In this document: positions 34,009 through 63,472 of the stretch, one piece after another | How the letters are laid out: the number at the start of each line of letters is the position of its first letter | Numbering within the stretch: the stretch's first letter is position 1 | Source of the DNA: Patescibacteria group bacterium | GTDB taxonomy: Bacteria; Patescibacteriota; Minisyncoccia; Minisyncoccales; UBA10102 | Assembly (NCBI GenBank): GCA_022563395.1 | Contig: JADFNM010000001.1 | Span: forward strand, 590,342-654,341 | Reading direction: 5' to 3' | DNA: 64,000 bases | Position numbers and translations under genes: made by a program | Notes under the pieces: generated by a model | The model's input: the letters and a program-made list of their open reading frames with translations, nothing else | Databases searched by the model: none | What the model was told of the DNA's origin: nothing

Positions 34009-34028
34009 GTATAATTTTGTATCTACTA

Positions 34029-41548: not shown

Positions 41549-44500
41549 ATGAGAAAATTCAAAAGGATTTTTGCTGCTGTAACTGTCATGACTATGTTGG
41601 GAGTGGCAGCTGTTCCTGTACCTGCTTCTGCTTTAACTGCAGAAGAACTGCAGGTACAGATTGATGCCCTTTTGGCACAGTTGGCAACATTACAGACAGA
41701 GTTAACTGAATTAACAGGAGAAGAAGCCCCAACAACAGGTGCAATTACAGGAGTCCCCGATGGCTTTACCTTTGAGACCAATCTGGCTCAAGGAGACTCT
41801 GGGAGCGACGTAATGTACCTCCAGATTGTGCTGAACTCTGATTCAGACACCAAGCTGGCAGATTCAGGAGCCGGTTCTCCTGGAAGTGAAACAACCTTCT
41901 TTGGTCCTATAACCAATGCTGGTGTTGTAAAATTCCAGGAAAAGTATGCCGATGAGGTTTTGGCAACTTATGGACTAACATCTGGAACAGGTTTTGTGGG
42001 CACTACCACAAGAGCAAAACTTAATTCTCTGCTTGGTGCAGCTCCCGCAGGTGAAGAGGAGCCAACAGGAGAAGAGCCAACAGGAGAAGAGCCGATAGTA
42101 GAAGGAGATTTGTCAGTTGCCACGCCTGGTCCTGCAGTTACAACGTTTGTTGCAGGTCAAGCCACCGCAAACCTGATTGATCTTACATTTGTTGGAACAG
42201 CCACCGTTACAGGACTTACGTTAGAAAGAATTGGTGTTTCTAGTAATACCACGGCTTCAAACGTATACCTGTTTGACGGCGTTGTTCGTTTGACCGATGC
42301 TGGCACAGTGAATTCAGACGGCGTTGTTACCTTTAACAATGCAAACGGCCTGTTTATTGTGAGCGGCGTAAAGACCATTTCAGTGAAATCAGACATCTTA
42401 AACGGTTCGGGCGAAACCCTTGGTATGCAGTTGACTGCAGTTACCCTTGCAAGCGGCACGGTGAGCGGCCTTCCCGTTACGGGAAACCTTAACACCATTG
42501 CTTCAGCCAGTTTGGGTACTGTTACCCTTGGTCTAATAACTCCAACCACGTCAACTATTGACGCGGCAAACGACGTTATCGTTTGGGAGAGTACTGCAAC
42601 TGTGGGTCTACGCAAGGTTTCATTGACCAGACTTGCGCTTCGCAACATCGGTTCCATTAACTCAACGGATGTTCAAAACTTCCGCTTGCAGGTTAGTGGC
42701 GTAGAAGTTGCCCAGACTCAAAGCCTGGACTCAAGCGGATTTGTTACCTTTGACCTTTCTGCTTCACCATATGTTCTGGATACGGGAAACCGCATACTCA
42801 GAGTTATGGCCGACGTGATAGGAGGAGCTTCTCGAAACCTGCAAATGTCATTGCGCAGAGCCGCAGACATTGGTTTGGTTGACAGCAGCTTCAACGTCAA
42901 CATTACTGCAAGTGATACTTACCCGGCAAGTACCGGAGTTGTTGATATCAACGCAGGAACAATGACGGTGGTAAAGGCATCTGATTCGCCTTCCGGTAAC
43001 ATTACCGACGCAGCAGTAGATGCTGTCTTGGCACGCTACACGTTTACTGCATTCGGGGAGCCAATTAAGGTTGAAACCTTAAACGCTGTCGTTGATTCCA
43101 GTGATAATGCCGTGGCCCAGTTAAGAAACGGCCGCATTATGGTGAATGGAGCTCAGGTTGGAAGCACTGCCGCACTTGTAGAGGAGAATACAACAGCAAC
43201 AGGTACGCAGTACACAACCAACTTCATTGTGAACCCTGGCACTCCGGTAACCGTGGAAATTCGCGCCGACATCTTTGACGACGACGGAACAAACGATGTT
43301 ATCTCAGGTGTCACCCTTGTAGCCAGCCTGGCTCAAGTTACAGGCAATGCTGTGCCTCAGACGTCACTTGGTACCATTAATGTTCCAACTGCTAACCAGG
43401 CTGCAAACCAGGTATCCGTAGCAACCGGCTCTGCCACATTGGTTGCAACAGCAAGTTACCCCAACCAGACCTTTACGGTTCCAATTACAGCTTACAAGAT
43501 TGCTGAGTGGGATTTGACGAATGGTTCTACAGAGGCAGTGAACATTACAACCCTTGACGCAGACTTTGCAAGAACTGGCAATCTTCTTATCGGAAGCTTG
43601 TCTGACGTATGGGTTAAGTACGGTAGCAACACTTCTACCGTTAAGTCTTCGGTAATCTTGACTCCCAATGTTTGGTCTGTAAACTTCCAGCTCGCTAAAA
43701 GCGAGACCATGAAGATTCAGGTGTTTGCAAACATCAGCAGCTTTTCGATTACAAGCGACACGGTAACCGTAACAATGGAAGTTTCAGGAACTGGTGTTGA
43801 TTCTGCAACCACTGTTACTACCAGTGCACAACCCGGCCAAACCATGACTGCCGGAACAGGTACCCTAGTAGCTGCATTAGATGCCTCATCGCCTAATTCT
43901 GCATTGATTGACGACTCAGGCACTGTAAACGTTGCAGCATTTGAGTGGACAACCACAAACGACATCTTCACGATTACCGAGATAAACGTCAATCTTTCAA
44001 CCGCAACCGCAGTAACAAGCGTGCACTTGATGGATGGTACCACTGCGCTTTCGACGAAGCCCGGTGCCATCGACGTAACATTCGGAGGTCTTTCTATACC
44101 GATTGTTGCAAACGGCACCAAGACATTAGGTATTGACCTTGTAATGTCTACGGTTGGATTTGGATTCGGTCTTACCGCTTCAGATGTGGCTGTAACGCTC
44201 GACGTTGTAACATCTAAGGATTCACAGGGTGTGGAGTACGTTGACGCGAGTCCTAACAGTGATCAAGGTAGCCTGAATGATGATGGCGGTGATCCTGTGG
44301 GTAACGCAACCTACGCCTACAAAGCAGTTCCAACCATTACTTTGGTAAGTCTGCCTACAGGCCTATTGGGTACGGGTACCAAGACACTTTCTAAGTTCAC
44401 CATAAATACCAATGGTACAGGAACCATTGCCTGGAGAAAGCTTCTCTTTACGGTTACCAAGTCAATAGTTGCTGGTGATGGAGTCATTAGTGCCCCAGCC

Positions 44501-45373
44501 CTATGGGAGGGCAATGAACAGGTTACCGGTACTGCAATTGTAACTAACCTTGGCGTTGGTCAGAGTCCAGGGAGCATTACATTCTTGGCTACGAGCGAAG
44601 AAGCGATTTCAGGAGCCAAGACCTATGAGTTGCGTGCAACTATAGCTGGAACCATTGCAGTGAATGACAGCATTAACACGAGCATTGCAAACCCGCTTAC
44701 TACCTTTGCAGCTTCTCTTGGAGCTTTCGCATCACAAACCACAGGTGGTAGCAACGTCTACTACGATGTAGGTGATGGAGGTACGGCAGATGTTGGTGAT
44801 GTTCGCCAAAGCACTGCTCTCTCTGTAGTTTCTGCTTACGTACAGACAGACACAGGAATTGCAACGTTCTTAACGTCTGATAATACTGATGAAGTATTGT
44901 CATTCGGCACCGTTGGCACTGGCCTAACCATTATCCTGACGGAAACTGGTGCAGGTACAGACCTGATTACCAACCCGCTTACCGGTACATTGGTAGACGC
45001 TGGATTTACTTGTAACGCGCATGCTGCGGCAAATGGTGGTGGTGCTGTTGAGCCAATCCCTGCAAACATCTTGTCAGTTAAATGCACGAATGGCGCTGGT
45101 AATGAAGTGATTCTCAACACCGCCCTAGTGGTTCCAGATGCTGCGCTACAGATAACTACAATTACTCTTACCACAAGCACATTTGCGACCAACACCGTTG
45201 TTGGGGCAAATGATTCTGACCTCAACATTCCGTTGACAGCCGGAGTTGATGCAACAGCATCATTCCTGTGGACTGATAAGTCAGCTCAGAGTCATGGAAT
45301 TACCACGACTGACTGGACGCGAGACTACTTAATAGATGTTCTGCCAACAAGTACGCAGGGCCTCAATAAGTAA
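41549..45373 (+). CDS. Giant secreted surface protein (signal peptide, coiled coil, PG-binding-like domain, long Thr/Val/Ala-rich beta-region)
   Basis: 1274 aa. Has a signal-like N-terminus, AEELQVQIDALLAQLATLQTELTEL, and a PG_binding_1-like segment (DVMYLQIVLN...VVKFQEKYADEVL...GTGFVGTTTRAKLNSLLG). Confidence 0.8.
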   Translation: MRKFKRIFAAVTVMTMLGVAAVPVPASALTAEELQVQIDALLAQLATLQTELTELTGEEAPTTGAITGVPDGFTFETNLAQGDSGSDVMYLQIVLNSDSDTKLADSGAGSPGSETTFFGPITNAGVVKFQEKYADEVLATYGLTSGTGFVGTTTRAKLNSLLGAAPAGEEEPTGEEPTGEEPIVEGDLSVATPGPAVTTFVAGQATANLIDLTFVGTATVTGLTLERIGVSSNTTASNVYLFDGVVRLTDAGTVNSDGVVTFNNANGLFIVSGVKTISVKSDILNGSGETLGMQLTAVTLASGTVSGLPVTGNLNTIASASLGTVTLGLITPTTSTIDAANDVIVWESTATVGLRKVSLTRLALRNIGSINSTDVQNFRLQVSGVEVAQTQSLDSSGFVTFDLSASPYVLDTGNRILRVMADVIGGASRNLQMSLRRAADIGLVDSSFNVNITASDTYPASTGVVDINAGTMTVVKASDSPSGNITDAAVDAVLARYTFTAFGEPIKVETLNAVVDSSDNAVAQLRNGRIMVNGAQVGSTAALVEENTTATGTQYTTNFIVNPGTPVTVEIRADIFDDDGTNDVISGVTLVASLAQVTGNAVPQTSLGTINVPTANQAANQVSVATGSATLVATASYPNQTFTVPITAYKIAEWDLTNGSTEAVNITTLDADFARTGNLLIGSLSDVWVKYGSNTSTVKSSVILTPNVWSVNFQLAKSETMKIQVFANISSFSITSDTVTVTMEVSGTGVDSATTVTTSAQPGQTMTAGTGTLVAALDASSPNSALIDDSGTVNVAAFEWTTTNDIFTITEINVNLSTATAVTSVHLMDGTTALSTKPGAIDVTFGGLSIPIVANGTKTLGIDLVMSTVGFGFGLTASDVAVTLDVVTSKDSQGVEYVDASPNSDQGSLNDDGGDPVGNATYAYKAVPTITLVSLPTGLLGTGTKTLSKFTINTNGTGTIAWRKLLFTVTKSIVAGDGVISAPALWEGNEQVTGTAIVTNLGVGQSPGSITFLATSEEAISGAKTYELRATIAGTIAVNDSINTSIANPLTTFAASLGAFASQTTGGSNVYYDVGDGGTADVGDVRQSTALSVVSAYVQTDTGIATFLTSDNTDEVLSFGTVGTGLTIILTETGAGTDLITNPLTGTLVDAGFTCNAHAAANGGGAVEPIPANILSVKCTNGAGNEVILNTALVVPDAALQITTITLTTSTFATNTVVGANDSDLNIPLTAGVDATASFLWTDKSAQSHGITTTDWTRDYLIDVLPTSTQGLNK

Positions 45374-45517: not shown

Positions 45518-47221
45518 ATGAAGCTGCGTACAAAGATATTATTTTCTATTGTTTTTACAGTTGTTTTTTTGCCATCCGCTGTTCAGGCCGAGTTTTTGGG
45601 CCAGACTGTTGTTTTTTTTGTTGACTCTTCTTATGACGCAACAAAAAGAGAGGAATTGCCTGCGGCTTTGGTAAAGATTTCTCCCAAACTTCTTTTATAT
45701 ATTGATGATGCCTGGTGGTCAGCTCAAAACCCTTTTGTGCAAGATGAGGTAAGGCGCTCTTTTAATGCTTTGGCAACAGAGTTTGAAGGAAGAATATATC
45801 CTATTCTTACCTCAACCTTTGGAAGCGAATGGAAGCCGGGGATTGACAACGATTCTCGTATTACGGTTCTTTTTCACCCCATGACAGATGAGGCCGGGGG
45901 ATACACAAATTACGGAGACGAATATCCCAAGGTACAGAACCCCACATCAAACGAGCGTGAAATGGTTTATTTAAACACTGCTTTTATCACAAGCCCAATG
46001 CTCAAGAGCCTTCTTTCGCATGAATTGGTACATTTGATTACCTTTAATCAGAAAGAAAACCTGCACAACGTTTCAGAAGAGATGTGGCTCAATGAGGCAA
46101 GGGCAGAATATGCTTCAACGCTTTTGGGATATGACGATGTGTTTTTAGGTTCAAACCTTGAACGGAGGATACAAACGTTTATCCAAGACCCTACCGATTC
46201 CTTGATAGAATGGAATAACGAAAAATCTGATTATGCGGTGGTAAATCTTTTTATACAGTATCTTGTTGACCAGTACGGGTTAAACATTCTTAAAGATTCT
46301 CTGCTATCTAGCAAGGTTGGGGCAGCCTCTCTGTTTGAAGCACTGGAGAACAATGGATTTAGCACCACCTTTGCCGAAGTGTTTACCGATTGGACCATTG
46401 CAGTGCTTGTGAATGACTGCGCCCTAGGAGAAAGGTATTGCTATAAAAATCAAAACCTTAAAGATTTTAAGGTGGTTCCGCAAACCAACTTTTTGCCTGT
46501 TTCAGGAGAGAGTACGTTTTCTTTGGTGAACACCACAAAGGATTGGGCAGGGAACTGGTACAAACTTGTGGGAGGCAACAATGTACTTAAGGTAGAATTT
46601 CAGGGTAATCCTTTGGCAATCTTTAAACTGCCCTACCTTGTAGAAAATCGCGAAGGGCAGATTACTCTTAAGTTTGTTACTCTTAACGAAAACCAGAAGG
46701 GGCAGTTTGAGCTCCAAAATTATAAGGAAAACCGTTCCCTCATTCTCATTCCTTCTCCCCAGACAAATACCCAAGATACCGAGAATTTTCTTCCTTATCA
46801 GTTTGTTTTAACCTTTTCTACAGCCCAAAGAACTCAAGAGCAAGAGCAGGTTTTAATTGACCAGCTCTTAGCTCAAATTGATTTTCTTGCAAAAGAGATA
46901 GCCAAGATTCAGGCACAAATTTATGCTCTTTTGGCAGGCCAGGGCACGGCAAACTGCTCTTCATTTACTAGGGATTTGTCTTTTGGAATGAAAGATAATT
47001 TTGAGGTTAGCTGCTTGCAGGAGTTTCTAAAATCAGAGGGACCTGACATCTATCCTGAAGGAATTGTATCTGGCAACTTTCTTTCTTTGACGCAGGCAGC
47101 GGTAGTGCGCTTTCAAGAAAAATATGCGGATGATGTTCTGCTGCCTTTGGATTTGGAGAAGGGGACAGGATATGTTGGAGCTTCCACAAGAGCAAAAATC
47201 AACTCCATTTTATCTCCTTAA
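45518..47221 (+). CDS. Secreted zinc metallopeptidase-like protein with C-terminal coiled coil and PG-binding-like domain
   Basis: 567 aa with a signal peptide and the HELVHL (HExxH) motif. The C-terminal LIDQLLAQIDFLAKEIAKIQAQIYALL is followed by VVRFQEKYADDVL...GTGYVGASTRAKINSIL. Confidence 0.75.
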   Translation: MKLRTKILFSIVFTVVFLPSAVQAEFLGQTVVFFVDSSYDATKREELPAALVKISPKLLLYIDDAWWSAQNPFVQDEVRRSFNALATEFEGRIYPILTSTFGSEWKPGIDNDSRITVLFHPMTDEAGGYTNYGDEYPKVQNPTSNEREMVYLNTAFITSPMLKSLLSHELVHLITFNQKENLHNVSEEMWLNEARAEYASTLLGYDDVFLGSNLERRIQTFIQDPTDSLIEWNNEKSDYAVVNLFIQYLVDQYGLNILKDSLLSSKVGAASLFEALENNGFSTTFAEVFTDWTIAVLVNDCALGERYCYKNQNLKDFKVVPQTNFLPVSGESTFSLVNTTKDWAGNWYKLVGGNNVLKVEFQGNPLAIFKLPYLVENREGQITLKFVTLNENQKGQFELQNYKENRSLILIPSPQTNTQDTENFLPYQFVLTFSTAQRTQEQEQVLIDQLLAQIDFLAKEIAKIQAQIYALLAGQGTANCSSFTRDLSFGMKDNFEVSCLQEFLKSEGPDIYPEGIVSGNFLSLTQAAVVRFQEKYADDVLLPLDLEKGTGYVGASTRAKINSILSP

Positions 47222-47490: not shown

Positions 47491-48438
47491 ATGGATGCGA
47501 GTATCTTAAAACTTCTCCCGAGGACAAGAAGAAATGTTCCTCTTGCTTCCTACACCACGTTTAAGATTGGGGGGCGAGCCCGCTATTTTTTTATTGCACA
47601 AAAGACGAAAGATATTGTTGATGCGGTAGAGGCAGCAAAAAGCTTACAGGTGCCGTTTTTTGTTTTGGCAGGGGGGAGCAACGTGTTGCTTGCAGACAAG
47701 GGATTTTCTGGTCTAGTAATTTATATACAAAATACAACATACAAGATACAAGGCACAAAACTCTATGCTGAGGCCGGAGTAGATTTTCCTGTGATTGTAA
47801 AAGAGACAGGAAAGAAAGGATTGGCGGGGTTGGAATGGGCAGGTGGGCTGCCAGGTTCTGTTGGTGGAGCCGTGAGAGGAAACGCAGGAGCCTTTGGAGG
47901 CGAAGTCAAAGACAATATTCTTTCGGTTGTGGCGTTAGATACGAAGGGAAATGTGAAAGTGCTTTCTAGAAAGCAGTGCAGGTTTTCTTACCGAGACTCT
48001 ATGTTTAAAGAAAAGAACTGGATTGTGTTTTCTGCAACCTTTCAGCTAAAAAAGGGAAACAAGAAAGAGATTCAATCAGCAGCACAAGACCATATACAGT
48101 ACCGAAAGGAGCGACACCCCCTAGAATATCCTAATGCGGGAAGCATTTTTAAGAACTGCGACTTTAAAAAGTTTTCAAGGAAGCTTAAAAAAGAATTGCA
48201 ACATGTGGTAAAAGTGGATCCTTTTCCCGTTGTTCCCACCGCATATCTTATTTCTGAGGCCGGATTGAAAGGATTGCGCGTTGGAAAGGCAGAAGTTTCC
48301 AGAAAACATCCAAACTATATGGTAAACTTGGGGGGAGCTTCTTCGAAAGATGTGTTGCGCTTGATAGAAAAGGTAAAGAAAAGTATTAAAAAGAAATTTT
48401 CCGTGTCGTTAGAACAAGAAGTGCAGTATATTTCATGA
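47491..48438 (+). CDS. murB: UDP-N-acetylenolpyruvoylglucosamine reductase
   Basis: The ATG at 47491 gives MDASILKLLP.... Has an FAD-binding fold (YTTFKIGG.ARYF, GGGSNVL) and C-terminal MurB motifs (AGSIFKN, HPNYMVN). Confidence 0.9.
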   Translation: MDASILKLLPRTRRNVPLASYTTFKIGGRARYFFIAQKTKDIVDAVEAAKSLQVPFFVLAGGSNVLLADKGFSGLVIYIQNTTYKIQGTKLYAEAGVDFPVIVKETGKKGLAGLEWAGGLPGSVGGAVRGNAGAFGGEVKDNILSVVALDTKGNVKVLSRKQCRFSYRDSMFKEKNWIVFSATFQLKKGNKKEIQSAAQDHIQYRKERHPLEYPNAGSIFKNCDFKKFSRKLKKELQHVVKVDPFPVVPTAYLISEAGLKGLRVGKAEVSRKHPNYMVNLGGASSKDVLRLIEKVKKSIKKKFSVSLEQEVQYIS

Positions 48439-48598
48439 TGTAATACTTTATTTGTTTGTTTTGTGGAAAACTATCTCTAACGGGGTTGACAGCACACGTT
48501 TATAATGAAAAAATATATAAATAGTATTGCGATGGTAACATTATGAAAAGTCGAACCACCTGCAAATGTACTTCAACAATATTTTGATACATACTACT

Positions 48599-48709
48599 AT
48601 GGCAAAGAAGCGAAGAAAGAAAGCTGCTTCCAAGAAGAAAGCAGCTCCAAAGAGAAAGAAGGCTGCTCCCAAGAAAAAGAAAGCAGCAAAGAGAAAAAAG
48701 AAGAGATAG
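48599..48709 (+). CDS. Small Lys/Ala-rich basic protein (histone H1-like tail composition)
   Basis: 36 aa, MAKKRRKKAASKKKAAPKRKKAAPKKKKAAKRKKKR, followed by a 15-bp-stem hairpin. The opposite-strand ORFs are Phe/Leu-rich mirror artefacts. Confidence 0.5.
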   Translation: MAKKRRKKAASKKKAAPKRKKAAPKKKKAAKRKKKR

Positions 48710-48725
48710 TCTCCAGAAAGATGTA

Positions 48726-48770
48726 CCTGCTTTGCAAAACGATTTGCTTTTAGCAGTTTTGCAAAGCAGG
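48726..48770 (+). terminator. Strong hairpin 3' of the small basic-protein ORF
   Basis: Perfect 15-bp stem CCTGCTTTGCAAAAC/GTTTTGCAAAGCAGG with a 15-nt loop. Only a weak T-run lies downstream. Confidence 0.5.
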
Positions 48771-48884
48771 CCCTGGATTTGCATTTTTGCCCCACTCCAT
48801 TTCTTGGGGTTGTTTTTTTGACTGGCCTGTGGTAGAGTAGTGCTACAGAAAAATATAATCTTCAATCGATTTTTTCCTCTTTTT

Positions 48885-48912
48885 CCCCGCACATAACTCG
48901 TTATGTGCGGGG
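48885..48912. repeat. Twin hairpin A upstream of speH
   Basis: CCCCGCACATAA-ctcg-TTATGTGCGGGG. Confidence 0.7.
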
Positions 48913-48962
48913 TGTCCCAAGATTTTGGGCGCTCCGTCTTCACTGAAATGTGAGGGCTGAGG

Positions 48963-48987
48963 CCCCGCACATAAATTATGTGCGGGG
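48963..48987. repeat. Twin hairpin B upstream of speH
   Basis: CCCCGCACATAAATTATGTGCGGGG. The arms are the same as in hairpin A, which lies 50 nt upstream. Confidence 0.7.
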
Positions 48988-49011
48988 TAAGCGATTGAAT
49001 ACATATGCTTT

Positions 49012-49416
49012 ATGCAGCAGACAAAGAGGGTTCCTTCATGGACCAATCCTATCAATGCAATAGTTCCCAAATTTGCGTATGCTGGCACCCACGTGGTAGC
49101 TGATTTTTGGAACGGCAAAGTCATTGAAGACAAGAAAGAACTGGAACAACTCTTGCTGGGAGCGGCAAAAGCTGCAAACAGCAAGCCCTTGCAAATTTCT
49201 ATTTACAAGTTTGCCCCCCAGGGTATCACGGGGGTTGTTTTGTTGGCAGAGTCGCATATTGCCCTGCATACCTGGCCTGAGATTAACTATATTGCAATAG
49301 ATATTTTCACCTGTGGCATGGAGGCGCGGCCCAAAGATGCTCTTTCGTACTTTGAAAAGCATTTGCACCCGGAGCGAGTTGAGGTAACAGAAATGAAACG
49401 AGGAAGACAACCATGA
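49012..49416 (+). CDS. speH: S-adenosylmethionine decarboxylase proenzyme (SpeH/class 1 pyruvoyl type)
   Basis: 134 aa. LLAESHIALHTWPE contains the Glu-Ser self-cleavage site. Also has AIDIFTCG. Confidence 0.88.
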   Translation: MQQTKRVPSWTNPINAIVPKFAYAGTHVVADFWNGKVIEDKKELEQLLLGAAKAANSKPLQISIYKFAPQGITGVVLLAESHIALHTWPEINYIAIDIFTCGMEARPKDALSYFEKHLHPERVEVTEMKRGRQP

Positions 49417-50282
49417 GGATGAAACTCCTTGGAAAACAGTGGATGTTTGAGGAGTTCATTCCAGGAGAACTGAAAAGTGCCTTTACGGCATTTTCTGTTG
49501 ATCGAGAAATTCTGGAAACAAAGACGCCATACCAGAAGATTTCTATTATTGAGAATATTGAATTTGGGAGAATGCTGTTTCTTAATGACCTTGTGCAGGT
49601 CGCAGAAATGGGCGATGCAGCATACCATGAAATGCTTGTTCACCCAGGGCTTTTAACGCACCCAAAACCACAGAAAGTGCTAATCATTGGCGGCGGTGAT
49701 GGGGGTACGCTGAGAGAAGTTTTAAAACACCCCGTGCGGGAGGTTTTGCTGGCGGAGATTGATAAAGAAGTAATCAATGTTTCAAAACAATATCTTCCTT
49801 CTATATCACAAAATGCCTTTGAAGATCGCCGGACCAAGGTTTTTATTGAAGATGGTATGGAGACCCTAAAAAGGTATCGTAATGAGTTTGATTGCGTTAT
49901 TCTTGATTCCAATGATCCCGATGGCTCAATGGCCCATGAGCTATTTACGTATAATTGTTTTAAACTAGTAAAACAAGCATTAAAACCAAACGGTATTTTC
50001 ATAGCGCAGACAGGATATCTTTCAGATAAGTTTGGAAAACAAGCAAGAAAAGAAATGAAGAAAGTTTTTCCTTTTGTATGGTTTCACAGGGCTTTTGTGC
50101 CGTATATTCTTGAAGACGAGCATACATTTTCTTTTGCAAGCTCGCAAAAAAAATATAAAGAGATAACACTTTCAGCGCTCAAGAAGCGTTACGAAAGGCG
50201 GAGTCTTGTGACTTCGTATTATTCTCCAGAAATGCACCTGGCATCCGCCGTCTTGCCTAAGTATCTTCAGGAAAGCACTTAG
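49413..50282 (+). CDS. speE: Spermidine synthase-family aminopropyltransferase, paralog 1
   Basis: 289 aa. Has YQKISIIE, YHEMLVHP, IIGGGDGGTLREVLKH and ILDSNDPDG. Confidence 0.88.
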   Translation: MRMKLLGKQWMFEEFIPGELKSAFTAFSVDREILETKTPYQKISIIENIEFGRMLFLNDLVQVAEMGDAAYHEMLVHPGLLTHPKPQKVLIIGGGDGGTLREVLKHPVREVLLAEIDKEVINVSKQYLPSISQNAFEDRRTKVFIEDGMETLKRYRNEFDCVILDSNDPDGSMAHELFTYNCFKLVKQALKPNGIFIAQTGYLSDKFGKQARKEMKKVFPFVWFHRAFVPYILEDEHTFSFASSQKKYKEITLSALKKRYERRSLVTSYYSPEMHLASAVLPKYLQEST

Positions 50283-50373
50283 GGGTGGTATGGAGCATGT
50301 CTTGAAGGCGGTACAGCCAAAGAAGGTGGATGTACGAGAAATAAAAAGGGGCGCAGCAAAAGGGTAATGTAAC

Positions 50374-51237
50374 ATGAAGAAGATCTCAGTTTTTGGGAAT
50401 ACTTGGGCACTGGAAGGATTCCTTCCTGGAGAGAAAAAGATATTTCTTGCGGGTTTTGCAATAAAAACAAAGATATATACGGGAAAGAGTAAGTATCAAA
50501 GTATAGATATTTTTGATACAAAAGGATATGGTAGAATGTTTTTCCTTGATGGGTTAGTACAGCTCTCCACAAAAGATGAGGCGGTGTATCATGAAATGCT
50601 GGTACATCCCGCCTTGATGCATCATCCTTCCCCGCAGCGAGTTCTCATTATCGGTGGGGGAGATGGAGGAGCACTGCGTGAAGTACTAAAGCATCCTGTT
50701 AAGGAAGCGTTTTTAGTTGAAATTGATGAAGAAGTGATTTACGTCGCAAAAAAGTATCTTCCCACGCTGTGCCGTTCGGCCTTTGGAGACAAGAGAAGTA
50801 AGATTGTGGTGGCAGATGGAATTGAGTTTGTTGCGAAGCATAAAAACTATTTTGATTGTATAATTCTTGATTCCAACGATCCGGACGGAGTTATGGCAGC
50901 AAAACTTTTTGAAGAGAAGTTTTTGCGCGCCGTAAAAAATGCGCTTAGAAAAGATGGTATTTTTTCCGCACAGACTGGGTATATTTCTGATACCTTTGGC
51001 TTGAAAGCACGAGCTACCATGAGAAAGGTATTTTACTCCTTTGAATTGCACCGCGCCTTTGTCGGGAGTTTTCCGCGAGATGAACACTCTTTTCCTGTCG
51101 CGTCTTTAAAAATGGATCTTGCAAAGACGACAGAGAAAGTTCTTGAAAAAAGATATAAAGAAAGGAGGATCTCTACCTCATACTATTCTCCAGTCATGCA
51201 TTTTGCTTCGGGTGTTTTTCCTCCTTTATTAAAGTAA
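50374..51237 (+). CDS. Spermidine synthase-family aminopropyltransferase, paralog 2
   Basis: 287 aa. Has YQSIDIFD, YHEMLVHP, IIGGGDGGALREVLKH and ILDSNDPDG. Confidence 0.85.
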   Translation: MKKISVFGNTWALEGFLPGEKKIFLAGFAIKTKIYTGKSKYQSIDIFDTKGYGRMFFLDGLVQLSTKDEAVYHEMLVHPALMHHPSPQRVLIIGGGDGGALREVLKHPVKEAFLVEIDEEVIYVAKKYLPTLCRSAFGDKRSKIVVADGIEFVAKHKNYFDCIILDSNDPDGVMAAKLFEEKFLRAVKNALRKDGIFSAQTGYISDTFGLKARATMRKVFYSFELHRAFVGSFPRDEHSFPVASLKMDLAKTTEKVLEKRYKERRISTSYYSPVMHFASGVFPPLLK

Positions 51238-51265
51238 CATATCTTTTTTGGGTTTTCTGTGTGCT

Positions 51266-52120
51266 ATGAAGTTTTTGAATTCACCATATAATTTCAAAGA
51301 GGCAAATGTTGTTTTTTTTGGCGTACCTATTGGAAAGCGATTTTACGATGCCGCAAAAGCGTTGCGCAACACCCCTGTGTATATGGAGGATTTTGATATT
51401 GCAAGCAAGAAGGAATTGCTTGAAGGCATAAAAGTTGTAGATGTTGGGGATTTAAAGCCCAAAAAAACAGAGGATATCACGCAATATACTCGCTCCATTA
51501 TAGAGAATAACAAAATACCAGTTGCGATTGCAGGAGATCACCCATCGCTTTTTACTATTCCCGCTTTCCCGGAAGGCATTAAAGTTATAAGCTTTGATGC
51601 CCATTGCGATTTAAAAGACGAGTATAAAGATGACAATATTGTAGACTTAAGCACTCTATGGAATGGCAAATTTGATGCGAGAGTGAATGGAGCAACGTGG
51701 TTGCGCAGATTAAGCGAAACCATGGATCCAAAGAATATTTTGCTGATTGGGGTAAGGTCTTGCGATGCAGAAGAACTTAAGTTTATTGAGGAGAGCGGTA
51801 TTACATACATTACAGTAGGGGATATTCAAGAAAATAGAGAAGCAGCGCAAAAGAAAATCCAGGAATTCTCTGAAGGCTCAAAGGTATATATTACTCTTGA
51901 TGTGGATGTTTTTGACCCAAGTATTGCCCCCGCAGTTCATCAGCCAGAACCAGACGGGATATATTTTTTGGAGTTTAAGAGCTTACTGCGCGCTATCTCA
52001 GGCAATATTGTGGGTCTTGATGTCTGCTGCTTAAAACCGATAAAGGGAAACCAGATAACGGAATTTCTTGCTACAAGAGCGTTGTTTGAGATATTAAGCT
52101 TGGTTAAAAAAAGAGTATGA
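51266..52120 (+). CDS. speB: Agmatinase / ureohydrolase family
   Basis: Has GDHPS, SFDAHCDL, GVRS and LDVDVFDPSIAP manganese-ligand motifs. An alternative TTG start lies at 51248. Confidence 0.85.
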   Translation: MKFLNSPYNFKEANVVFFGVPIGKRFYDAAKALRNTPVYMEDFDIASKKELLEGIKVVDVGDLKPKKTEDITQYTRSIIENNKIPVAIAGDHPSLFTIPAFPEGIKVISFDAHCDLKDEYKDDNIVDLSTLWNGKFDARVNGATWLRRLSETMDPKNILLIGVRSCDAEELKFIEESGITYITVGDIQENREAAQKKIQEFSEGSKVYITLDVDVFDPSIAPAVHQPEPDGIYFLEFKSLLRAISGNIVGLDVCCLKPIKGNQITEFLATRALFEILSLVKKRV

Positions 52121-52491
52121 GAAAGAATTATACAAAGACCTATCATATTATTTTTGATGCTTTTGGTGTAGATAAAAAACTCTTAAGGAATGAGAAGTTT
52201 ACGTTGAATTTATTACTTCAACTCCCAAAATTAGTAGGAATGAAGATTCTCTCTGGGCCACATTTAGTGCGAGACTATGATACTGGGCACGAAGGACTTA
52301 CTGGATTTGCGATTATAGATTACTCACATATCTCTTTACATACTTTCGTTGATACGCAAGAGATTTTTATAGATATATTTTCCTGCAAACCTTTTGATTA
52401 TAAGAAAGTACGGCGATATCTTTTTAAGCAATTGAAAATAAAGAGCGGGCAAGTTGAAACATTAGAAGTTAAATACCCCTGGGAGAAATAG
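52117..52491 (+). CDS. Second AdoMetDC-like pyruvoyl enzyme (divergent cleavage motif; possible arginine decarboxylase)
   Basis: 124 aa. IIDYSHISLHTFVD aligns with ESHIALHTWPE of SpeH but has Tyr-Ser instead of Glu-Ser. Also has IDIFSC. Confidence 0.65.
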   Translation: MRKNYTKTYHIIFDAFGVDKKLLRNEKFTLNLLLQLPKLVGMKILSGPHLVRDYDTGHEGLTGFAIIDYSHISLHTFVDTQEIFIDIFSCKPFDYKKVRRYLFKQLKIKSGQVETLEVKYPWEK

Positions 52492-52497
52492 CAGTAC

Positions 52498-53367
52498 ATG
52501 AAGAAGCAAAAAGTTGCACTGGTAGATAGTGTTCCCTTTGACGAATCAAGGGTAACGGTTGCCTACAAGGTAAAAAAGGTACTGTATTCGGGGAAATCTG
52601 CATATCAAAAGATTAATGTCTTTGATCTTGAGTTTTATAGAAGAGCGCTATTTTTGGATGATATTTTGCAAACAACGCAAAAAGATGAATTTATCTATCA
52701 TGAAATGCTTTGCCAAGCACCGCTATTTTTACATTCTTTGCCAGAGAAAGTTTTAATTATCGGCGGAGCCGATGGAGGCGCATTAGAAGAAGTGTTAAAG
52801 CATGCATCGGTACAGGAAGTTTGGATGGTAGAGATAGACAGAAAAGTTGTTGATGTATCCCGAAAATATCTTCCCTCTATTTCCAAGAATGCATTTCAAG
52901 ATAAGCGGACACATCTTCTTTTTGAGGATGGGAAGGAATTCGTAAAAAAGCACAAGAGTTTTTTTGATGTTGTCATTCTCGACCTCTCAGATCCAGGAGG
53001 GCCCGCAGAAGGCCTTATCTCCCCAGCGTTTTATAGAAATGTAAAGCAATGCCTGCGAAAGAATGGGATTGTTTCTGTACAGTCTGGTTCTCTTAGCGCC
53101 CAGCCACATCTTGTGGCCTTAATCCAAAAGCGTTTGCGCAGCGTTTTTCGCTTTGTAGAAATGCGATGTGCAGTAGTTCCTTCTTACCAAGCAGGAGTGT
53201 TTACCTTTACCTTAGCTTCGGACTTTAACTTCTCTATGGTTTCCTCAAAGACCTTAGAAAAGAAGTTTAAAAGCGCAAAAAAGATGGATTTGAAGTATTG
53301 GTCTCCAAAGATTGCTGTTGCATCAGCTATTTTACCAAGGTACATAAAAGATTTTTTGGGAAAATAG
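52498..53367 (+). CDS. Spermidine synthase-family aminopropyltransferase, paralog 3 (most divergent)
   Basis: 289 aa. Has YQKINVFD, YHEMLCQ, IIGGADGGALEEVLKH and ILDLSDPGGPA. Confidence 0.85.
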   Translation: MKKQKVALVDSVPFDESRVTVAYKVKKVLYSGKSAYQKINVFDLEFYRRALFLDDILQTTQKDEFIYHEMLCQAPLFLHSLPEKVLIIGGADGGALEEVLKHASVQEVWMVEIDRKVVDVSRKYLPSISKNAFQDKRTHLLFEDGKEFVKKHKSFFDVVILDLSDPGGPAEGLISPAFYRNVKQCLRKNGIVSVQSGSLSAQPHLVALIQKRLRSVFRFVEMRCAVVPSYQAGVFTFTLASDFNFSMVSSKTLEKKFKSAKKMDLKYWSPKIAVASAILPRYIKDFLGK

Positions 53368-53428
53368 TAAAAGAAGAGGTCAATACCACTTTTTTACAAA
53401 CACTCCATTTTAGGCAATAATAGCTATT

Positions 53429-55861
53429 ATGAAGATTTTTGAGAAATTCTTTGCTCAAGACCACGAGAAATACGCGAAAAAATTCAGGCCCCAAATAGAG
53501 AAGATTGCCTCTTTTGAGGCAGAACTGAAGTTGCTTTCTCTTGAGCAGTTTAAAGAGAGGACAAGGGAACTCAAGGAACAACTTTCCAAAGACGCACAAC
53601 TGGATATTTTGCTCCCGGAGGCTTTTGCATTGGTGAGGGAGGCCTCTTTGCGTACGCTTCAGCAGCGGCATTTTGATGTGCAGTTAATAGGAGGCATGGT
53701 GCTTCACGAGGGCAAGATTGCAGAAATGAAGACAGGAGAAGGAAAGACCCTTACCGCAACGCTTCCCGTGTACCTTAATGCTTTAACGGATAACGGGGTA
53801 CACATTATTACGGTAAACGATTATCTGGCAAAGAGAGACACGGTGTGGATGGGGCAAATCTACCATGCCCTGGGTTTGTCTGTTTCTTGCATTACCCACG
53901 ACGCTTCCTATATATACGACCCGAGTTACGGACAGGACTCAACGCAGGATGAAAAACGAGATACCTTAGGTTCATTTTTAGTAGAGGAGTCTTATCTTCG
54001 TCCCGTTTCAAGAAAAGAGGCGTACCTGGCCGATATTACCTACGGGACAAACAACGAGTTTGGCTTTGACTATCTTAGAGATAATATGGCGCAGAGCTTG
54101 GAAACCCAGGTGCAGCGGGGCCACGCTTTTGCCATCATAGACGAGGTAGATTCTGTGTTGGTGGACGAAGCAAGAACCCCCCTGATTATTTCTGCCCCAG
54201 ACCAGGAAAGCTCCTCTTGGTACAAAGAGTTTGCTCGCCTCGTACCCCAGCTCAAAAAGGAAGAAGATTATGAGTTAGATGAAAAGTTAAAAGCAGTAAC
54301 CTTGACGGAACAAGGCGTAAACAAGGTAGAGCGGTTAATGGGGGTGAAGGATATTTACCAAGAGCGTGGTATTAAGTTTTTGCATCATTTAGAACAGGCC
54401 CTGAAAGCAGAGGCAATCTTTGAGCGCGACCGAGATTATGTGGTGAGAGACGGAAGCGTTGTTATTGTAGATGAGTTTACCGGAAGACTCTTGCCAGGAA
54501 GAAGATACTCTGGCGGCCTGCACCAGGCCTTAGAGGCAAAAGAGGGGGTTTTGGTGCAGCCAGAATCTTTGACGTTGGCCTCCATTACCTTTCAAAACTA
54601 TTTTAGGATGTACAAAAAGCTAGCTGGAATGACAGGAACCGCTTTAACTTCAGCTGAAGAGTTTTCTAAGGTATACAACCTTGAAGTAATCGCCATTCCC
54701 ACAAACAAGCCCATGGTGCGCCAGGATATGCCAGACAAGGTGTATCAATCACAAGAGGCAAAGTTCAATGCCATTGTAGAAGAGATCAAGGAGAGACAGA
54801 AAAAAGGACAACCTGTGCTTATTGGTACGGTCTCCATTCAAAGGAATGAATATCTGGGCAAACTTTTAGAACGGCAGGGAGTTCGCCATGAAATGCTCAA
54901 CGCAAAAAACCACGAGAGGGAAGCTGCCATCATTGCACAAGCTGGGCAAAAGGGAGCTGTTACCGTTGCAACAAACATGGCAGGAAGAGGGGTAGACATT
55001 ATCTTGGGGGGAAACCCGTTAGATGAGAAGGAGGCAGAAGGGGTCAAGAGTTTGGGAGGGCTCCATGTTATTGGAACCGAACGCCACGAAGCAAGAAGAA
55101 TTGACAACCAGCTGAGAGGACGCTCTGGCAGACAAGGAGATCCAGGGTCTACCCAGTTTTTTGTTTCTTTAGAAGACGACCTCATCCGTATCTTTGGGGG
55201 GGAGCGCATTCAAAAATTAATGCAGCAGCTCCACTTGCCAAAAGAGGAGGCCATTGAGTCCAAGATGGTATCTGGAACCATAGAGTCAGCCCAAAGCAAG
55301 ATTGAGGGGTTTAACTTTGATGCGAGAAAGCACCTGCTGGAGTATGATGATGTGTTGAATAAACACCGAGAGACCGTGTACCGAAAAAGGAGAGAATTGC
55401 TCAATATGGCCAAGGAAGGAACCTTAAAAGAGTATATTCTTGGGGTTATAGAAAAGCTTGGGAAAAACAAAGAGGAATATGACAAGAAAGAACAGGAACT
55501 GGGTCAAGAAAATCTGCGCCAGGCAGAAAAGATTGTTGCCATGCGCGTCTTGGATTCCTTGTGGCTTGAGCATTTAGAAAACATGGAGGCCTTGCGGGAT
55601 TCTGTAAAATTGCGCGCCTATGGTCAGCAAGACCCTTTGATAGAATACAAGAATGAGGCAAGAAAAATGTTTCAGTCTTTTGTAGAGAACATGGAGGCAA
55701 TGATTGCAAACGCTTTGCTTCAGATTTCGCGTGTTCAGCCGCATCAACATCAGCATGTGCACCAGGCCTCCCAGCAGGATCCGCAATACAAGAATGTTGG
55801 ACGAAACGACCCCTGTCCTTGCCAAAGCGGCAAGAAATTCAAGCGCTGCCATGGTGCATAG
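53429..55861 (+). CDS. secA: Preprotein translocase ATPase SecA
   Basis: 810 aa. Has MKTGEGKTL (Walker A), the DEAD-like DEVDS, TNMAGRGVDI and the C-terminal zinc motif CPCQSGKKFKRCHG. Confidence 0.95.
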   Translation: MKIFEKFFAQDHEKYAKKFRPQIEKIASFEAELKLLSLEQFKERTRELKEQLSKDAQLDILLPEAFALVREASLRTLQQRHFDVQLIGGMVLHEGKIAEMKTGEGKTLTATLPVYLNALTDNGVHIITVNDYLAKRDTVWMGQIYHALGLSVSCITHDASYIYDPSYGQDSTQDEKRDTLGSFLVEESYLRPVSRKEAYLADITYGTNNEFGFDYLRDNMAQSLETQVQRGHAFAIIDEVDSVLVDEARTPLIISAPDQESSSWYKEFARLVPQLKKEEDYELDEKLKAVTLTEQGVNKVERLMGVKDIYQERGIKFLHHLEQALKAEAIFERDRDYVVRDGSVVIVDEFTGRLLPGRRYSGGLHQALEAKEGVLVQPESLTLASITFQNYFRMYKKLAGMTGTALTSAEEFSKVYNLEVIAIPTNKPMVRQDMPDKVYQSQEAKFNAIVEEIKERQKKGQPVLIGTVSIQRNEYLGKLLERQGVRHEMLNAKNHEREAAIIAQAGQKGAVTVATNMAGRGVDIILGGNPLDEKEAEGVKSLGGLHVIGTERHEARRIDNQLRGRSGRQGDPGSTQFFVSLEDDLIRIFGGERIQKLMQQLHLPKEEAIESKMVSGTIESAQSKIEGFNFDARKHLLEYDDVLNKHRETVYRKRRELLNMAKEGTLKEYILGVIEKLGKNKEEYDKKEQELGQENLRQAEKIVAMRVLDSLWLEHLENMEALRDSVKLRAYGQQDPLIEYKNEARKMFQSFVENMEAMIANALLQISRVQPHQHQHVHQASQQDPQYKNVGRNDPCPCQSGKKFKRCHGA

Positions 55862-61684: not shown

Positions 61685-63472
61685 ATGGACATTAACTTTT
61701 TTGGCATTACCAATTTCCGAAATACACAAAGGCGTTTTGGCATAAAAGTGGACGACCGAAGACGCCATTTTTACGTTGTGGGGAAGACCGGCATGGGAAA
61801 AACCGAGATGCTAAAGAATATGGCGGTGCAGGACATTCAGGGAGGGAACGGCATTGGATTTGTGGATCCGCACGGGGAAGCGGCAGATGAATTATTGCAG
61901 TTTGTCCCCACCGAGCGCTTAAAAGACGTCATTTACTTTAACCCTGCTGACACAGACCACCCTATTGCTTTTAACGTCATGGAGAATGTGAAGGCCGAGC
62001 ACCGTCATTTGGTGGCTTCTGGTTTAATGTCTGTGTTCAAAAAAGTCTGGCCCGACGTGTGGTCGGCCCGCATGGAATACATTTTAAACAACACGGTGCT
62101 GGCCTTGTTGGAGTATCCAGGATCAACCCTGTTGGGGATTAACCGCATGCTGGTGGATGTAGACTACAGAGCAAAGGTTATCAACAAGCTCACCGATCCC
62201 GTAGTCAAGGCCTTTTGGATTCAAGAATATGCAAGATATACGCAGAGGTATGAGGTGGAAGCAACCGCTGCTATCCAAAACAAAGTAGGCCAATTCGTGT
62301 CTAATCCCTTAATTCGCAACATCATTGGTCAGACAAAGTCTTCCTTTGACATGCGAGAGGTCATGGACAAAAAGAAGATTTTAATACTCAATCTTTCCAA
62401 AGGACGCATTGGGGAAGACAATTCCCGCCTCTTGGGAGCCATGCTTATCACGAAAATCCAGCTTGCTGCAATGTCTCGAGTGAGCATTCCGGAAGACCAG
62501 CGGCAGGATTTCTTTTTATACATTGATGAGTTTCAGAACTTTGCGTCAGATTCTTTTGTGAGCATTCTTTCTGAAGCGAGAAAGTATCGCTTGTCTTTGA
62601 TTTTAAGCCACCAGTACATAGCGCAGCTGGACGAGAACGAGTCTAAGGTTCGCGGGGCCGTGTTTGGAAACGTTGGCACAATTGTGTCTTTTCGGGTGGG
62701 GGCAGAAGACGCAGAATTCTTAGAAAAGGAGTTTACTCCGGAGTTTTTGGCTTTAGATTTTGTGAATCTGAACAAGTACTCAATCTATGTAAAGCTCATG
62801 ATTGACGGCATTACGGGTAAACCATTTTCTGCCCAAACCCTGCCGCCTCCAGTGCTGCCCTTTGTTTCTCCTGAAGAATCCAACCAGGACGAGATTATTC
62901 GCTGGAGCAGGGAACAGTATGCATCCCCTCGCCACCAGGTGGAAGATGAGATTGCGAAGTGGGCAGAGGTTGATGTTGCTGGCGAAAAGAAAACGCAGGT
63001 GGTTCAACCTGCCGGTCAAGAGCAGATACTCTATGATGCAAGGTGCGATAACTGCGGCAAGGATACCAAGGTGGTCTTTGCCCCGGACGGCAAAAGGAAA
63101 ATCTACTGCAAGTCGTGCAGGAAAAAGCTTCAGCGGAGCAAGAGTCAACTGCTCGACTCTGGCGGGCGCGTACCCCGAGGAGTTCCTTCCGAGGGGTCGC
63201 AGAGCGCCCAGGGGCAGGTTTCCTTAAAGGAAGCTATGCAAAAGGAACCCACCATATTTTATCCTTCAAAAGGGAAGCAGGATCATTCAAATCAAAAGAG
63301 AAAAGAAGTGGACAGACAAGGATTAAAAGAAGTTTTGGGAGAGGCTCTTAAAGAAGGAACATCTCAAAAAAAATCCCTGCCTATAGAGGCAGGCCAGAAA
63401 GACGAGCCCAACACCAAGACAAGTCTGGTGCGGGGTAAACTTCGGCCAGGGGAAACCCTGCGTTTCTCTTGA
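61685..63472 (+). CDS. VirD4/TraD/HerA-like P-loop ATPase with C-terminal CxxC-x17-CxxC zinc ribbon and basic tail
   Basis: 595 aa. Walker A is VVGKTGMGKTE and Walker B-like is FFLYIDEFQNF. Also has ARKYRLSLILSHQ, and CDNCGKDTKVVFAPDGKRKIYCKSC has exactly 17 residues between the Cys pairs. Confidence 0.75.
   Translation: MDINFFGITNFRNTQRRFGIKVDDRRRHFYVVGKTGMGKTEMLKNMAVQDIQGGNGIGFVDPHGEAADELLQFVPTERLKDVIYFNPADTDHPIAFNVMENVKAEHRHLVASGLMSVFKKVWPDVWSARMEYILNNTVLALLEYPGSTLLGINRMLVDVDYRAKVINKLTDPVVKAFWIQEYARYTQRYEVEATAAIQNKVGQFVSNPLIRNIIGQTKSSFDMREVMDKKKILILNLSKGRIGEDNSRLLGAMLITKIQLAAMSRVSIPEDQRQDFFLYIDEFQNFASDSFVSILSEARKYRLSLILSHQYIAQLDENESKVRGAVFGNVGTIVSFRVGAEDAEFLEKEFTPEFLALDFVNLNKYSIYVKLMIDGITGKPFSAQTLPPPVLPFVSPEESNQDEIIRWSREQYASPRHQVEDEIAKWAEVDVAGEKKTQVVQPAGQEQILYDARCDNCGKDTKVVFAPDGKRKIYCKSCRKKLQRSKSQLLDSGGRVPRGVPSEGSQSAQGQVSLKEAMQKEPTIFYPSKGKQDHSNQKRKEVDRQGLKEVLGEALKEGTSQKKSLPIEAGQKDEPNTKTSLVRGKLRPGETLRFS

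Follow-up and report, generated by a model that had tools for sequence, protein, structure and literature searches.

Decarboxylases of arginine and of ornithine derived from S-adenosylmethionine decarboxylase (AdoMetDC) are known in bacteria, in the Candidate Phyla Radiation (CPR) and in DPANN archaea (Li et al. 2023, PMC10407285), and in Vampirovibrio chlorellavorus a gene of this kind lies in the cluster speD1 / speD2(SpeDA) / speE / speB (PMC10407285). I consider here a cluster of six genes at positions 49012-53367 of a 64-kb stretch of DNA, referred to below as the window, from a Patescibacteria group bacterium (assembly GCA_022563395.1, contig JADFNM010000001.1, positions 590,342 to 654,341 of the forward strand) with a genome of ~0.67 Mb (~671 kb). 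The six genes most likely constitute one operon that produces polyamines from arginine and S-adenosylmethionine. I put at roughly two in three the probability that the operon leads from arginine to spermidine, and probably to a longer polyamine, by means of a second AdoMetDC-fold protein (D2), three aminopropyltransferases (E1, E2 and E3) and an atypical ureohydrolase.

Like the Vampirovibrio SpeDA cluster, that of the window pairs a bona fide class 1b AdoMetDC with a homolog of the same class that lacks a conserved proline, accompanied by SpeE and an agmatinase-family ureohydrolase, and the predicted course in both is from arginine through agmatine to spermidine with decarboxylated S-adenosylmethionine (dcSAM). 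The window differs in possessing three aminopropyltransferases (APTs) of three lineages rather than one, and in that its ureohydrolase is a member of a divergent subfamily, archaeal for the most part, without the canonical Glu and His. Unlike the decarboxylases of known SpeDA clusters, D2 falls in a CPR/DPANN clade with an aromatic residue before the processing serine (the aromatic-Ser clade), apart from the presumed characterised clade with Glu-Ser (E-S).

There is a likeness also to the route by which Thermus thermophilus and Thermococcus kodakarensis form spermidine via N1-aminopropylagmatine, in which an arginine decarboxylase, an APT able to use agmatine and a ureohydrolase that releases spermidine act together, and in which extra APTs give longer polyamines. 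Those organisms, however, rely on a SpeA dependent on pyridoxal phosphate or on a PdaD-type pyruvoyl arginine decarboxylase, whereas the predicted arginine decarboxylase of the window is derived from AdoMetDC. They are thermophiles or hyperthermophiles, whereas the proteome of the window corresponds by its IVYWREL content to ~44 °C (33 °C for the cluster), weak evidence that does not support thermophily as the reason for the extra APTs. Their branched products need BpsA, and no BpsA-like protein was found in the cluster of the window.

Several divergent SpeE paralogs in one genome are known from bacterial APT pairs (Li et al. 2024, PMC11107197), but the window has three paralogs in tandem, within a small CPR genome, and two of them carry F-P-x-D-E-H in place of P-T-Y-P-S-G-x-W. 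The SpeDA-SpeY-SpeB clusters for homospermidine (PMC10407285; PMC13625781) employ the same decarboxylase family, and sister CPR genomes carry a SpeDA-SpeY-ureohydrolase module in the same slot, between murB and secA, that the cluster occupies in the window. Unlike those clusters, the window has no SpeY and would use the dcSAM/aminopropyl route, so that the predicted product is spermidine or a spermine-type amine and not homospermidine. The type of pathway is already known; what sets the window apart is the three-lineage APT set, the aromatic-Ser decarboxylase clade and the subfamily of ureohydrolases with Cys and Gly at two otherwise conserved positions. A literature search gave no published account of polyamine synthesis through SpeE in Patescibacteria.

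The six open reading frames (ORFs) are co-oriented and in part overlapping, with murB upstream and secA downstream. Their order had been given in a first-pass annotation of this DNA as speH, speE-1, speE-2, ureohydrolase, AdoMetDC-like gene and speE-3, and the ORF table contains all of them, as follows:

49012-49416, + strand: speH, 134 aa; PF02675 120.7 bits; TIGR03330 131.5 bits, above the equivalog cutoff of 75.65
49413-50282, + strand: speE1 (E1), 289 aa; PF01564 and PF17284; NF002010 271 bits (cutoff 260)
50374-51237, + strand: speE2 (E2), 287 aa; PF01564 and PF17284; NF002010 276.6 bits
51266-52120, + strand: atypical ureohydrolase, 284 aa; PF00491 151 bits; TIGR01230 121 bits, below cutoff
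52117-52491, + strand: D2 (speDA-like), 124 aa; PF02675 70.5 bits; TIGR03330 52.6 bits, below cutoff
52324-52326, + strand: codon of D2 Ser70, the predicted pyruvoyl precursor; invariant column in 38 family members
52498-53367, + strand: speE3 (E3), 289 aa; NF002010 302 bits; TIGR00417 272 bits (cutoff 249.55)

Overlaps of 4 nt join speH to speE1 and the ureohydrolase gene to D2, the latter two being translationally coupled, and the other gaps measure 6-91 nt. The ATG at 51266, taken as the start of the ureohydrolase, agrees with the N-termini of homologs and with public gene calls; the frame is open from a TTG at 51248 as well. D2 is NCBI protein MCH7828897.1. The same cluster, with protein identities of 98-100%, recurs on independent metagenome contigs, which excludes both chance and an artefact of assembly as the source of the arrangement. 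The inventory of polyamine genes covers the 64-kb window: outside the cluster it has housekeeping genes but none further for polyamines, and no gene for a canonical SpeA or SpeC occurs within it. Against Rfam, the stretch 48300-53600 gave only sub-threshold noise, with no leader RNA or riboswitch evident upstream of speH, and scans for promoters and terminators gave counts not above those in shuffled sequence.

SpeH has the properties of a bona fide class 1b AdoMetDC proenzyme and would supply dcSAM to the cluster. The signature ES...HTWPE...FTCG is present, the processing region reads LLAE-S81-HIALH, and cleavage is predicted between Glu80 and Ser81, with His86 and Cys101 as the accompanying residues. 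In a neighbour-joining (NJ) tree with 200 bootstraps, SpeH groups with the AdoMetDCs of Thermotoga maritima and Aquifex aeolicus and with SpeE-adjacent homologs, in a clade (86% bootstrap) marked by H-T-W-P that excludes D2.

D2 is 34% identical to SpeH. Its AlphaFold2 (AF2) model (pLDDT 92.4) has as its top PDB fold matches the same T. maritima and A. aeolicus enzymes, with template modelling (TM) scores of 0.70-0.81, the best match being that of T. maritima at 0.75-0.8, and no structure of SpeDA or SpeDC is among the matches; AF2 models served here for fold and confidence only, not for the geometry of active sites. The processing region of D2, IIDY-S70-HISLH, has Tyr-Ser where SpeH has Glu-Ser, exactly as the first-pass annotation had read it, and self-cleavage is predicted at Tyr69-Ser70. 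S70, H75 and C90 are invariant across 38 aligned family members and correspond to S63, H68 and C83 of the T. maritima AdoMetDC, which are its processing and catalytic residues (PMC10407285). The motif of the family is IID[FY]SHIS[IL]HTF..., with Phe or Tyr before the serine and without W-P-E: D2 has HTFVD where SpeH has HTWPE. The proline of HTWPE, which does not vary among bona fide AdoMetDCs, is unconserved in SpeDA (PMC10407285), and for that reason its loss from D2 is not strictly diagnostic of SpeDA. With YS...HTFVD, D2 fails the bona fide AdoMetDC signature as well as the TIGR03330 cutoff. The positions of the columns diagnostic for SpeDC (Gln, Thr, Phe, Tyr) were inferred from the supplement alignment of PMC10407285; when D2 is aligned by ungapped BLASTP with the SpeDC domain from the fusion protein of D. 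phosphitoxidans, its A65, Y69, T76 and F84 lie opposite Q, T, F and Y, and D2 thereby appears to lack all four residues.

In the tree D2 lies within the aromatic-Ser clade (84% bootstrap), whose 31 proteins all come from CPR bacteria or DPANN archaea, and the separation from bona fide SpeH on which the first-pass annotation depended is thus seen at both clades. Its own subclade (97%) includes homologs from Wildermuthbacteria, Kaiserbacteria and Aenigmatarchaeota, and the sister subclade (100%) consists of proteins encoded in clusters of the form murB - D2-like - SpeY (PF01916) - ureohydrolase - secA. Separate from these is a clade of SpeY-linked homologs from Cyanobacteriota and Woesearchaeota with E-S and HTFQ, which is probably the published "third SpeDA clade", the tree containing no characterised SpeDA sequences. 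As far as the tree goes, D2 is not placed as an ortholog of any assayed enzyme, and its aromatic-Ser clade appears uncharacterised.

The neighbours of D2 relatives bear on its substrate. A scan of GTDB species representatives gave 80 loci with such relatives, whose neighbours were identified by tblastn with the six proteins of the window. In none of the 80 is SpeE found within 10 kb, and in about half (~40/80) a ureohydrolase adjoins the D2 relative. Over all fetched loci, SpeY, which is deoxyhypusine-synthase-like, adjoins 25 D2 relatives, 15 of which have a ureohydrolase as well. The Aenigmatarchaeota orthologs of D2 (57-63% identity) are singletons, as are some other orthologs; archaea need agmatine to make the agmatidine of tRNA-Ile. 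The SpeY pathways start from agmatine, according to Li et al. (2026, PMC13625781), and the D2-like proteins in SpeY clusters must therefore supply it. In the window itself, D2 overlaps the ureohydrolase gene and shares its operon with a bona fide SpeH. Because its relatives adjoin ureohydrolases or the agmatine-dependent SpeY, and not SpeE, I read D2 with considerable confidence as a SpeDA-like pyruvoyl L-arginine decarboxylase. The first-pass annotation had invoked a crenarchaeal precedent for such an enzyme. The idea of an arginine decarboxylase derived from AdoMetDC survives, but the crenarchaeal SSO0536 type is an unlikely home for D2, because all members of its clade are CPR or DPANN; the relevant precedent is SpeDA of bacteria, CPR and DPANN (PMC10407285). 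Among the loci fetched, one from a Nealsonbacteria metagenome-assembled genome (MAG; L025:10534-12753) encodes a SpeY/deoxyhypusine-synthase homolog of 739 aa that contains an intein (Hint and Intein_splicing domains).

The ureohydrolase is atypical in a different way. All six of its metal ligands (H92, D111, H113, D115, D212 and D214) are kept, and they are invariant in 30 aligned homologs, so far as can be judged leaving the binuclear-metal site intact and metal-competent. In enzymes of this family Glu277 (numbering of rat arginase) binds the guanidinium of the substrate and His141 shuttles protons. HMMER alignment to 3LHL and 3PZL, and MAFFT, put Cys255 of the window's protein in the column of the former and Gly142 in that of the latter, and the cysteine is almost invariant in the subfamily. 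There is also an insertion of ~17 aa after DAHCDLKDEY, the only region in which the AF2 model (pLDDT 92.9) is not confident. The best fold match is the agmatinase of T. volcanium (3PZL; TM 0.81), as against ~0.68 with an rmsd >5 for arginases, and the NCBIfam scores point the same way: 121 bits for agmatinase (TIGR01230, cutoff 174.3) and 82 bits for arginase.

The six ligands, the two substitutions and the insertion mark out a subfamily that crosses domains, and its members at 40-50% identity derive for the most part from MAGs of Aenigmarchaeota, Nanoarchaeia and Thaumarchaeota. One relative (in L098) adjoins the gene for pyruvoyl PdaD. A copy 60% identical, on an archaeal contig with GatD/GatE (L175:7001-9210), lies beside a deoxyhypusine synthase (DS) homolog and an E-S-type AdoMetDC homolog. 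In L176 (835-4573) a copy 54% identical occurs with an E3-like SpeE, a small AR-fold (alanine racemase) ornithine/arginine decarboxylase and a DS homolog. Because the subfamily adjoins three kinds of decarboxylase gene, its substrate is very likely agmatine or an N-substituted agmatine. The latter, in the form of N1-aminopropylagmatine, is slightly favoured, because SpeY-associated ureohydrolases are reported to be inactive on agmatine itself (PMC13625781). Neither SpeE, SpeH nor D2 was found beside the archaeal relatives in metagenome loci L095-L106, and these loci provided no precedent for a simple operon of an aminopropylagmatine ureohydrolase.

All three APTs match PF17284 and PF01564 and exceed the cutoff of NF002010. 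Their alignment shows the dcSAM-binding and catalytic motifs intact throughout (GGG(D/E)G, EID, DG, D-x-x-DP, YQ and YHE elements), E1 and E2 having GGGDGG and DSNDP and E3 having GGADGG and DLSDP, the latter in the loop DLSDPGGPA. The first-pass annotation was right in finding the SAM-binding loop and the D-x-x-DP motif in each, and right as well in that the paralogs are not recent, near-identical duplicates. E1 and E2 are 51% identical, E1 and E3 39-40%, and E2 and E3 42%, and the three represent three old lineages. In an NJ tree that includes PDB references from B. subtilis, E. coli, T. maritima, C. elegans and P. furiosus, E3 and its orthologs in two related loci (L091 and L177, listed below) fall with every one of these references in a canonical clade (90%), and E1 and E2 fall in a separate clade (95%), termed here DEH-type. 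Within the latter the E2 lineage has a bootstrap value of 100%, and the E1 lineage (74%) has as its sister the lone SpeE of locus L092, a placement that makes E1 the apparent ortholog of the SpeE in that simple speH-D2-speE cluster.

Each lineage has its own distribution. The nearest non-self homologs of E1 are only 55-60% identical to it. In L091 and L177 the corresponding position is occupied by orthologs of E2 with 82% identity, and among PDB entries E2 best matches the SpeE proteins of T. maritima and Pyrococcus. E3, whose best PDB matches are the spermidine synthases of C. elegans, E. coli, B. subtilis and human, has orthologs of 72-73% identity in L091 and L177, and an E3-like SpeE adjoins the ureohydrolase in L176; beyond these, an exhaustive HMMER search for relatives of E3 gave only metagenome proteins at 45-55% identity.

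The lineages differ also at the substrate pocket, where canonical enzymes have the segment P-T-Y-P-S-G-x-W. E3 has VPSYQAGVF (P-S-Y-Q-A-G-V-F), which is spermidine-synthase-like. The family of E1 and E2 has x-x-F-P-x-D-E-H, most often GCFPFDEH; E2 itself has VGSFPRDEH, and E1 has a sequence of its own, VPYILEDEH. The F-P-x-D-E-H motif is absent from the five aligned SpeE structures, nor is it known to me from any characterised enzyme. Human spermine synthase has at this place V-P-S-Y-L-E353-L-W, and E353 binds the distal amine of spermidine. The glutamate of E1 may align with it, which should be considered a lead only.

Thermospermine synthases mostly have Glu rather than Asp in motif 2, GGG(E)G, though exceptions are known (PMC11107197), and that Glu is absent from motif 2 of all three APTs. 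The pattern of bacterial spermine synthases (an Asp in motif 2 with Gly two residues downstream of it, together with a Glu in motif 3; PMC11107197) is matched by all three, with D-G-G and EID, but it is matched by many spermidine synthases too, those of T. maritima and B. subtilis among them, and does not discriminate. Spermidine synthases and N1-aminopropylagmatine synthases are not recognisable by motif, of 18 bacterial spermidine synthases 17 aminopropylate agmatine, and where bacteria have two APTs they produce spermine or thermospermine (all from PMC11107197). As candidates for BpsA the three proteins can be set aside: each scores best to the ordinary SpeE model PRK00811, and no BpsA model or structure is among their NCBIfam or PDB matches.

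The loci found in the same slot, or in a related setting, are given below with the identities of their proteins to those of the window:

L027 and others, D2-like protein 43-45%: murB - D2-like - SpeY - ureohydrolase - secA
L092, D2 78%: murB - speH - D2 - SpeE - secA
L093, D2 63%: murB - D2 - speH - SpeE - GNAT
L177 (5699-8720), ureohydrolase 85%, E2 82%, E3 73%: murB - speH - E2 - atypical ureohydrolase - E3 - secA
L091, D2 88%: murB - speH - E2 - atypical ureohydrolase - D2 - E3 - secA
Window, reference: murB - speH - E1 - E2 - atypical ureohydrolase - D2 - E3 - secA

Because related genomes hold simpler polyamine modules in the same slot, I infer that the cluster was assembled stepwise. That of the window looks like a merger of two modules, one composed of speH, D2 and an E1-type speE, the other of speH, E2, the atypical ureohydrolase and E3. 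In the D2 - speH - speE variant, a gene for a GNAT acetyltransferase lies directly 3' of speE (L093:5398-5904), and it could be a polyamine N-acetyltransferase. The G+C content of the D2 gene is 33%, as against ~39-47% for the other five genes of the cluster and ~37-50% for 2-kb bins of the window, most of which are near 45%; the low value is compatible with a separate, possibly horizontal, acquisition.

The pathway that I propose would run as follows. D2 would cleave itself to the pyruvoyl form and decarboxylate L-arginine to agmatine. An APT would then add an aminopropyl group to agmatine, giving N1-aminopropylagmatine, and this APT would most likely be of DEH-type (E1 or E2), since that is the only SpeE type found with D2 in the simpler clusters. 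The ureohydrolase would release urea from N1-aminopropylagmatine to leave spermidine; alternatively it would convert agmatine to putrescine, from which the canonical E3 would make spermidine. The remaining SpeE or SpeEs would extend spermidine to a tetraamine or to a longer linear polyamine, and a tetraamine, if made, would by its motifs be of the spermine type rather than the thermospermine type. A long-chain product is plausible on these grounds and a branched one is unsupported. The claim of the first-pass annotation that the genome encodes a complete route from arginine to long or branched polyamines can be kept as plausible, possibly by way of N1-aminopropylagmatine, except for the branched product, for which no BpsA-like protein was found.

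Several observations weigh against this pathway. The cluster of L177 has no D2, and the decarboxylase is therefore dispensable at the murB-secA locus; L177 may scavenge the precursor. L092 and L093 carry speH, D2 and speE with no ureohydrolase in the DNA fetched, and by the logic of Li et al. this gene content suggests an ornithine decarboxylase. The ureohydrolase is without the Glu and His conserved in characterised agmatinases and arginases, which makes its activity and substrate uncertain. Product specificity in the SpeE family is not reliably predictable from sequence (Li et al. 2024, PMC11107197). The trees are NJ trees on short alignments, and their deep nodes are unsupported. Finally, further genes for arginine decarboxylase, ornithine decarboxylase or ureohydrolase could exist beyond the 64-kb window.

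Of the other explanations, the one to be taken seriously departs from the proposed pathway only in the order of its steps. D2 would still produce agmatine, but the ureohydrolase would be an agmatinase that yields putrescine, E3 would convert putrescine to spermidine, and E1 and E2 would proceed to spermine or beyond. The canonical nature of E3 and its resemblance to the E. coli, C. elegans and human spermidine synthases fit this order, as does the agmatinase-like fold of the ureohydrolase, and an E3-type SpeE and the atypical ureohydrolase go together, both present in the window, L091, L177 and L176 and both absent from L092 and L093. On the other hand, the ureohydrolase is missing the guanidinium-binding Glu of agmatinases, its distant kin adjoin DS or SpeY, and SpeY-linked ureohydrolases are reported to be inactive on agmatine (PMC13625781); moreover, most spermidine synthases accept agmatine (PMC11107197). 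I regard a passage through putrescine as possible but the less probable course.

Far less probable is a pathway from arginine through ornithine and putrescine to spermidine (and perhaps longer products), with D2 an ornithine decarboxylase, a second emergence of SpeDC-like activity, and the ureohydrolase an arginase. It has in its favour the gene content of L092 and L093, which, lacking a ureohydrolase, matches characterised speD/speDC/speE clusters, and the fact that Li et al. found the homologs that they assayed from CPR bacteria (Kaiserbacteria, Peribacteria) to be ornithine decarboxylases (PMC10407285). Yet D2 has none of the residues at the four positions inferred to be diagnostic of SpeDC, SpeDC was found to have arisen a single time (PMC10407285), the sister subclade of D2 is embedded in agmatine-dependent SpeY clusters, and the ureohydrolase fits arginases worse than agmatinases both as a model (TM ~0.68 with rmsd >5, as against 0.8) and in its NCBIfam scores. 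Of the same low order, and if anything lower, is the chance that the cluster is redundant or decaying, with D2 an AdoMetDC isozyme or an inactive regulatory paralog and the SpeEs doing no more than making spermidine from scavenged diamines. The generic catalytic motifs of the SpeEs would allow this, L177 functions without D2, and it is general knowledge that CPR bacteria scavenge many metabolites. It sits poorly, however, with a D2 that falls apart from the bona fide clade and retains Ser, His and Cys although W-P-E is gone, and with D2-family genes that are widely singletons or neighbours of SpeY or ureohydrolase with no SpeE within 10 kb, where an AdoMetDC would be pointless unless those genomes have SpeE elsewhere. 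Nor are the SpeEs what redundancy would predict: at 39-51% identity the lineages are old, other genomes conserve each of them, and their pocket residues are distinct.

The proposed pathway through N1-aminopropylagmatine admits a bolder form, in which the aromatic-Ser clade is an independent neofunctionalisation of AdoMetDC, the ureohydrolase belongs to a subfamily of new specificity, and three aminopropylations occur in succession, carried out by the three APTs, the undescribed F-P-x-D-E-H pocket type among them. That all three hold together is doubtful. If they do, the [F/Y]-S clade could have its own solution to substrate recognition, and the ureohydrolases with Cys for Glu and Gly or Asp for His could act not on agmatine but on N1-aminopropylagmatine or bis-guanidino-homospermidine, or else on guanidino groups bound to protein.

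Some other features of the window deserve mention. Between murB and the polyamine cluster is a conserved micro-ORF on the + strand (48566/48599-48709) that encodes 29-36 aa, ~50-60% of them Lys or Arg (MAKKRRKKAASKKKAAPKRKKAAPKKKKAAKRKKKR), with counterparts at L091:1803, L092:2063, L177:5376 and L016:1755. The peptide has no Pfam match, and it is curious that a polycationic peptide should be encoded directly 5' of a polyamine operon. It is followed by a hairpin (48726-48770) with a 15-bp stem that is 100% identical in L091. Two near-identical perfect palindromes, at 48885-48912 and 48963-48987, have the form CCCCGCACATAA(C)...(G)TTATGTGCGGGG with spacers of 1-2 nt. They sit 25-127 nt upstream of speH, and the window contains no further copy of the motif; L091 and L092 have other perfect palindromes in the corresponding intergenic region between murB and speH. 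These sequences could be operators or small palindromic elements. Elsewhere in the window are large proteins, encoded at 34017-38438, 41549-45373, 45518-47221 and 61685-63472: one of 1473 aa with lamin-tail (LTD) domains, one of 1274 aa without a Pfam match, one of 567 aa with weak matches only, and a TraG/VirD4-like coupling protein. Gene content of this sort is typical of CPR genomes.

The usual description of Patescibacteria (CPR) is of scavengers with a minimal metabolism, and the first-pass annotation thought a polyamine pathway unusual for a putative symbiont. That view does not hold up, in that relatives carry alternative modules in the same murB-secA slot. The cluster offers three candidate enzymes that lie beyond current sequence rules: the aromatic-Ser decarboxylase, the DEH-pocket aminopropyltransferases and the ureohydrolase without Glu and His. 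If the predictions are true, the catalogue of agmatine-centred polyamine routes would be extended, with no new kind of pathway, and if the bolder form of the proposal were true as well, a mesophilic, ultra-small CPR bacterium would be making tetra- or penta-amines, compounds as a rule linked with thermophiles. The six polyamine genes take up ~0.65% of the genome, which argues that particular polyamines matter to CPR biology, and the alternative modules that relatives maintain in the same slot likewise point to the importance of polyamines.

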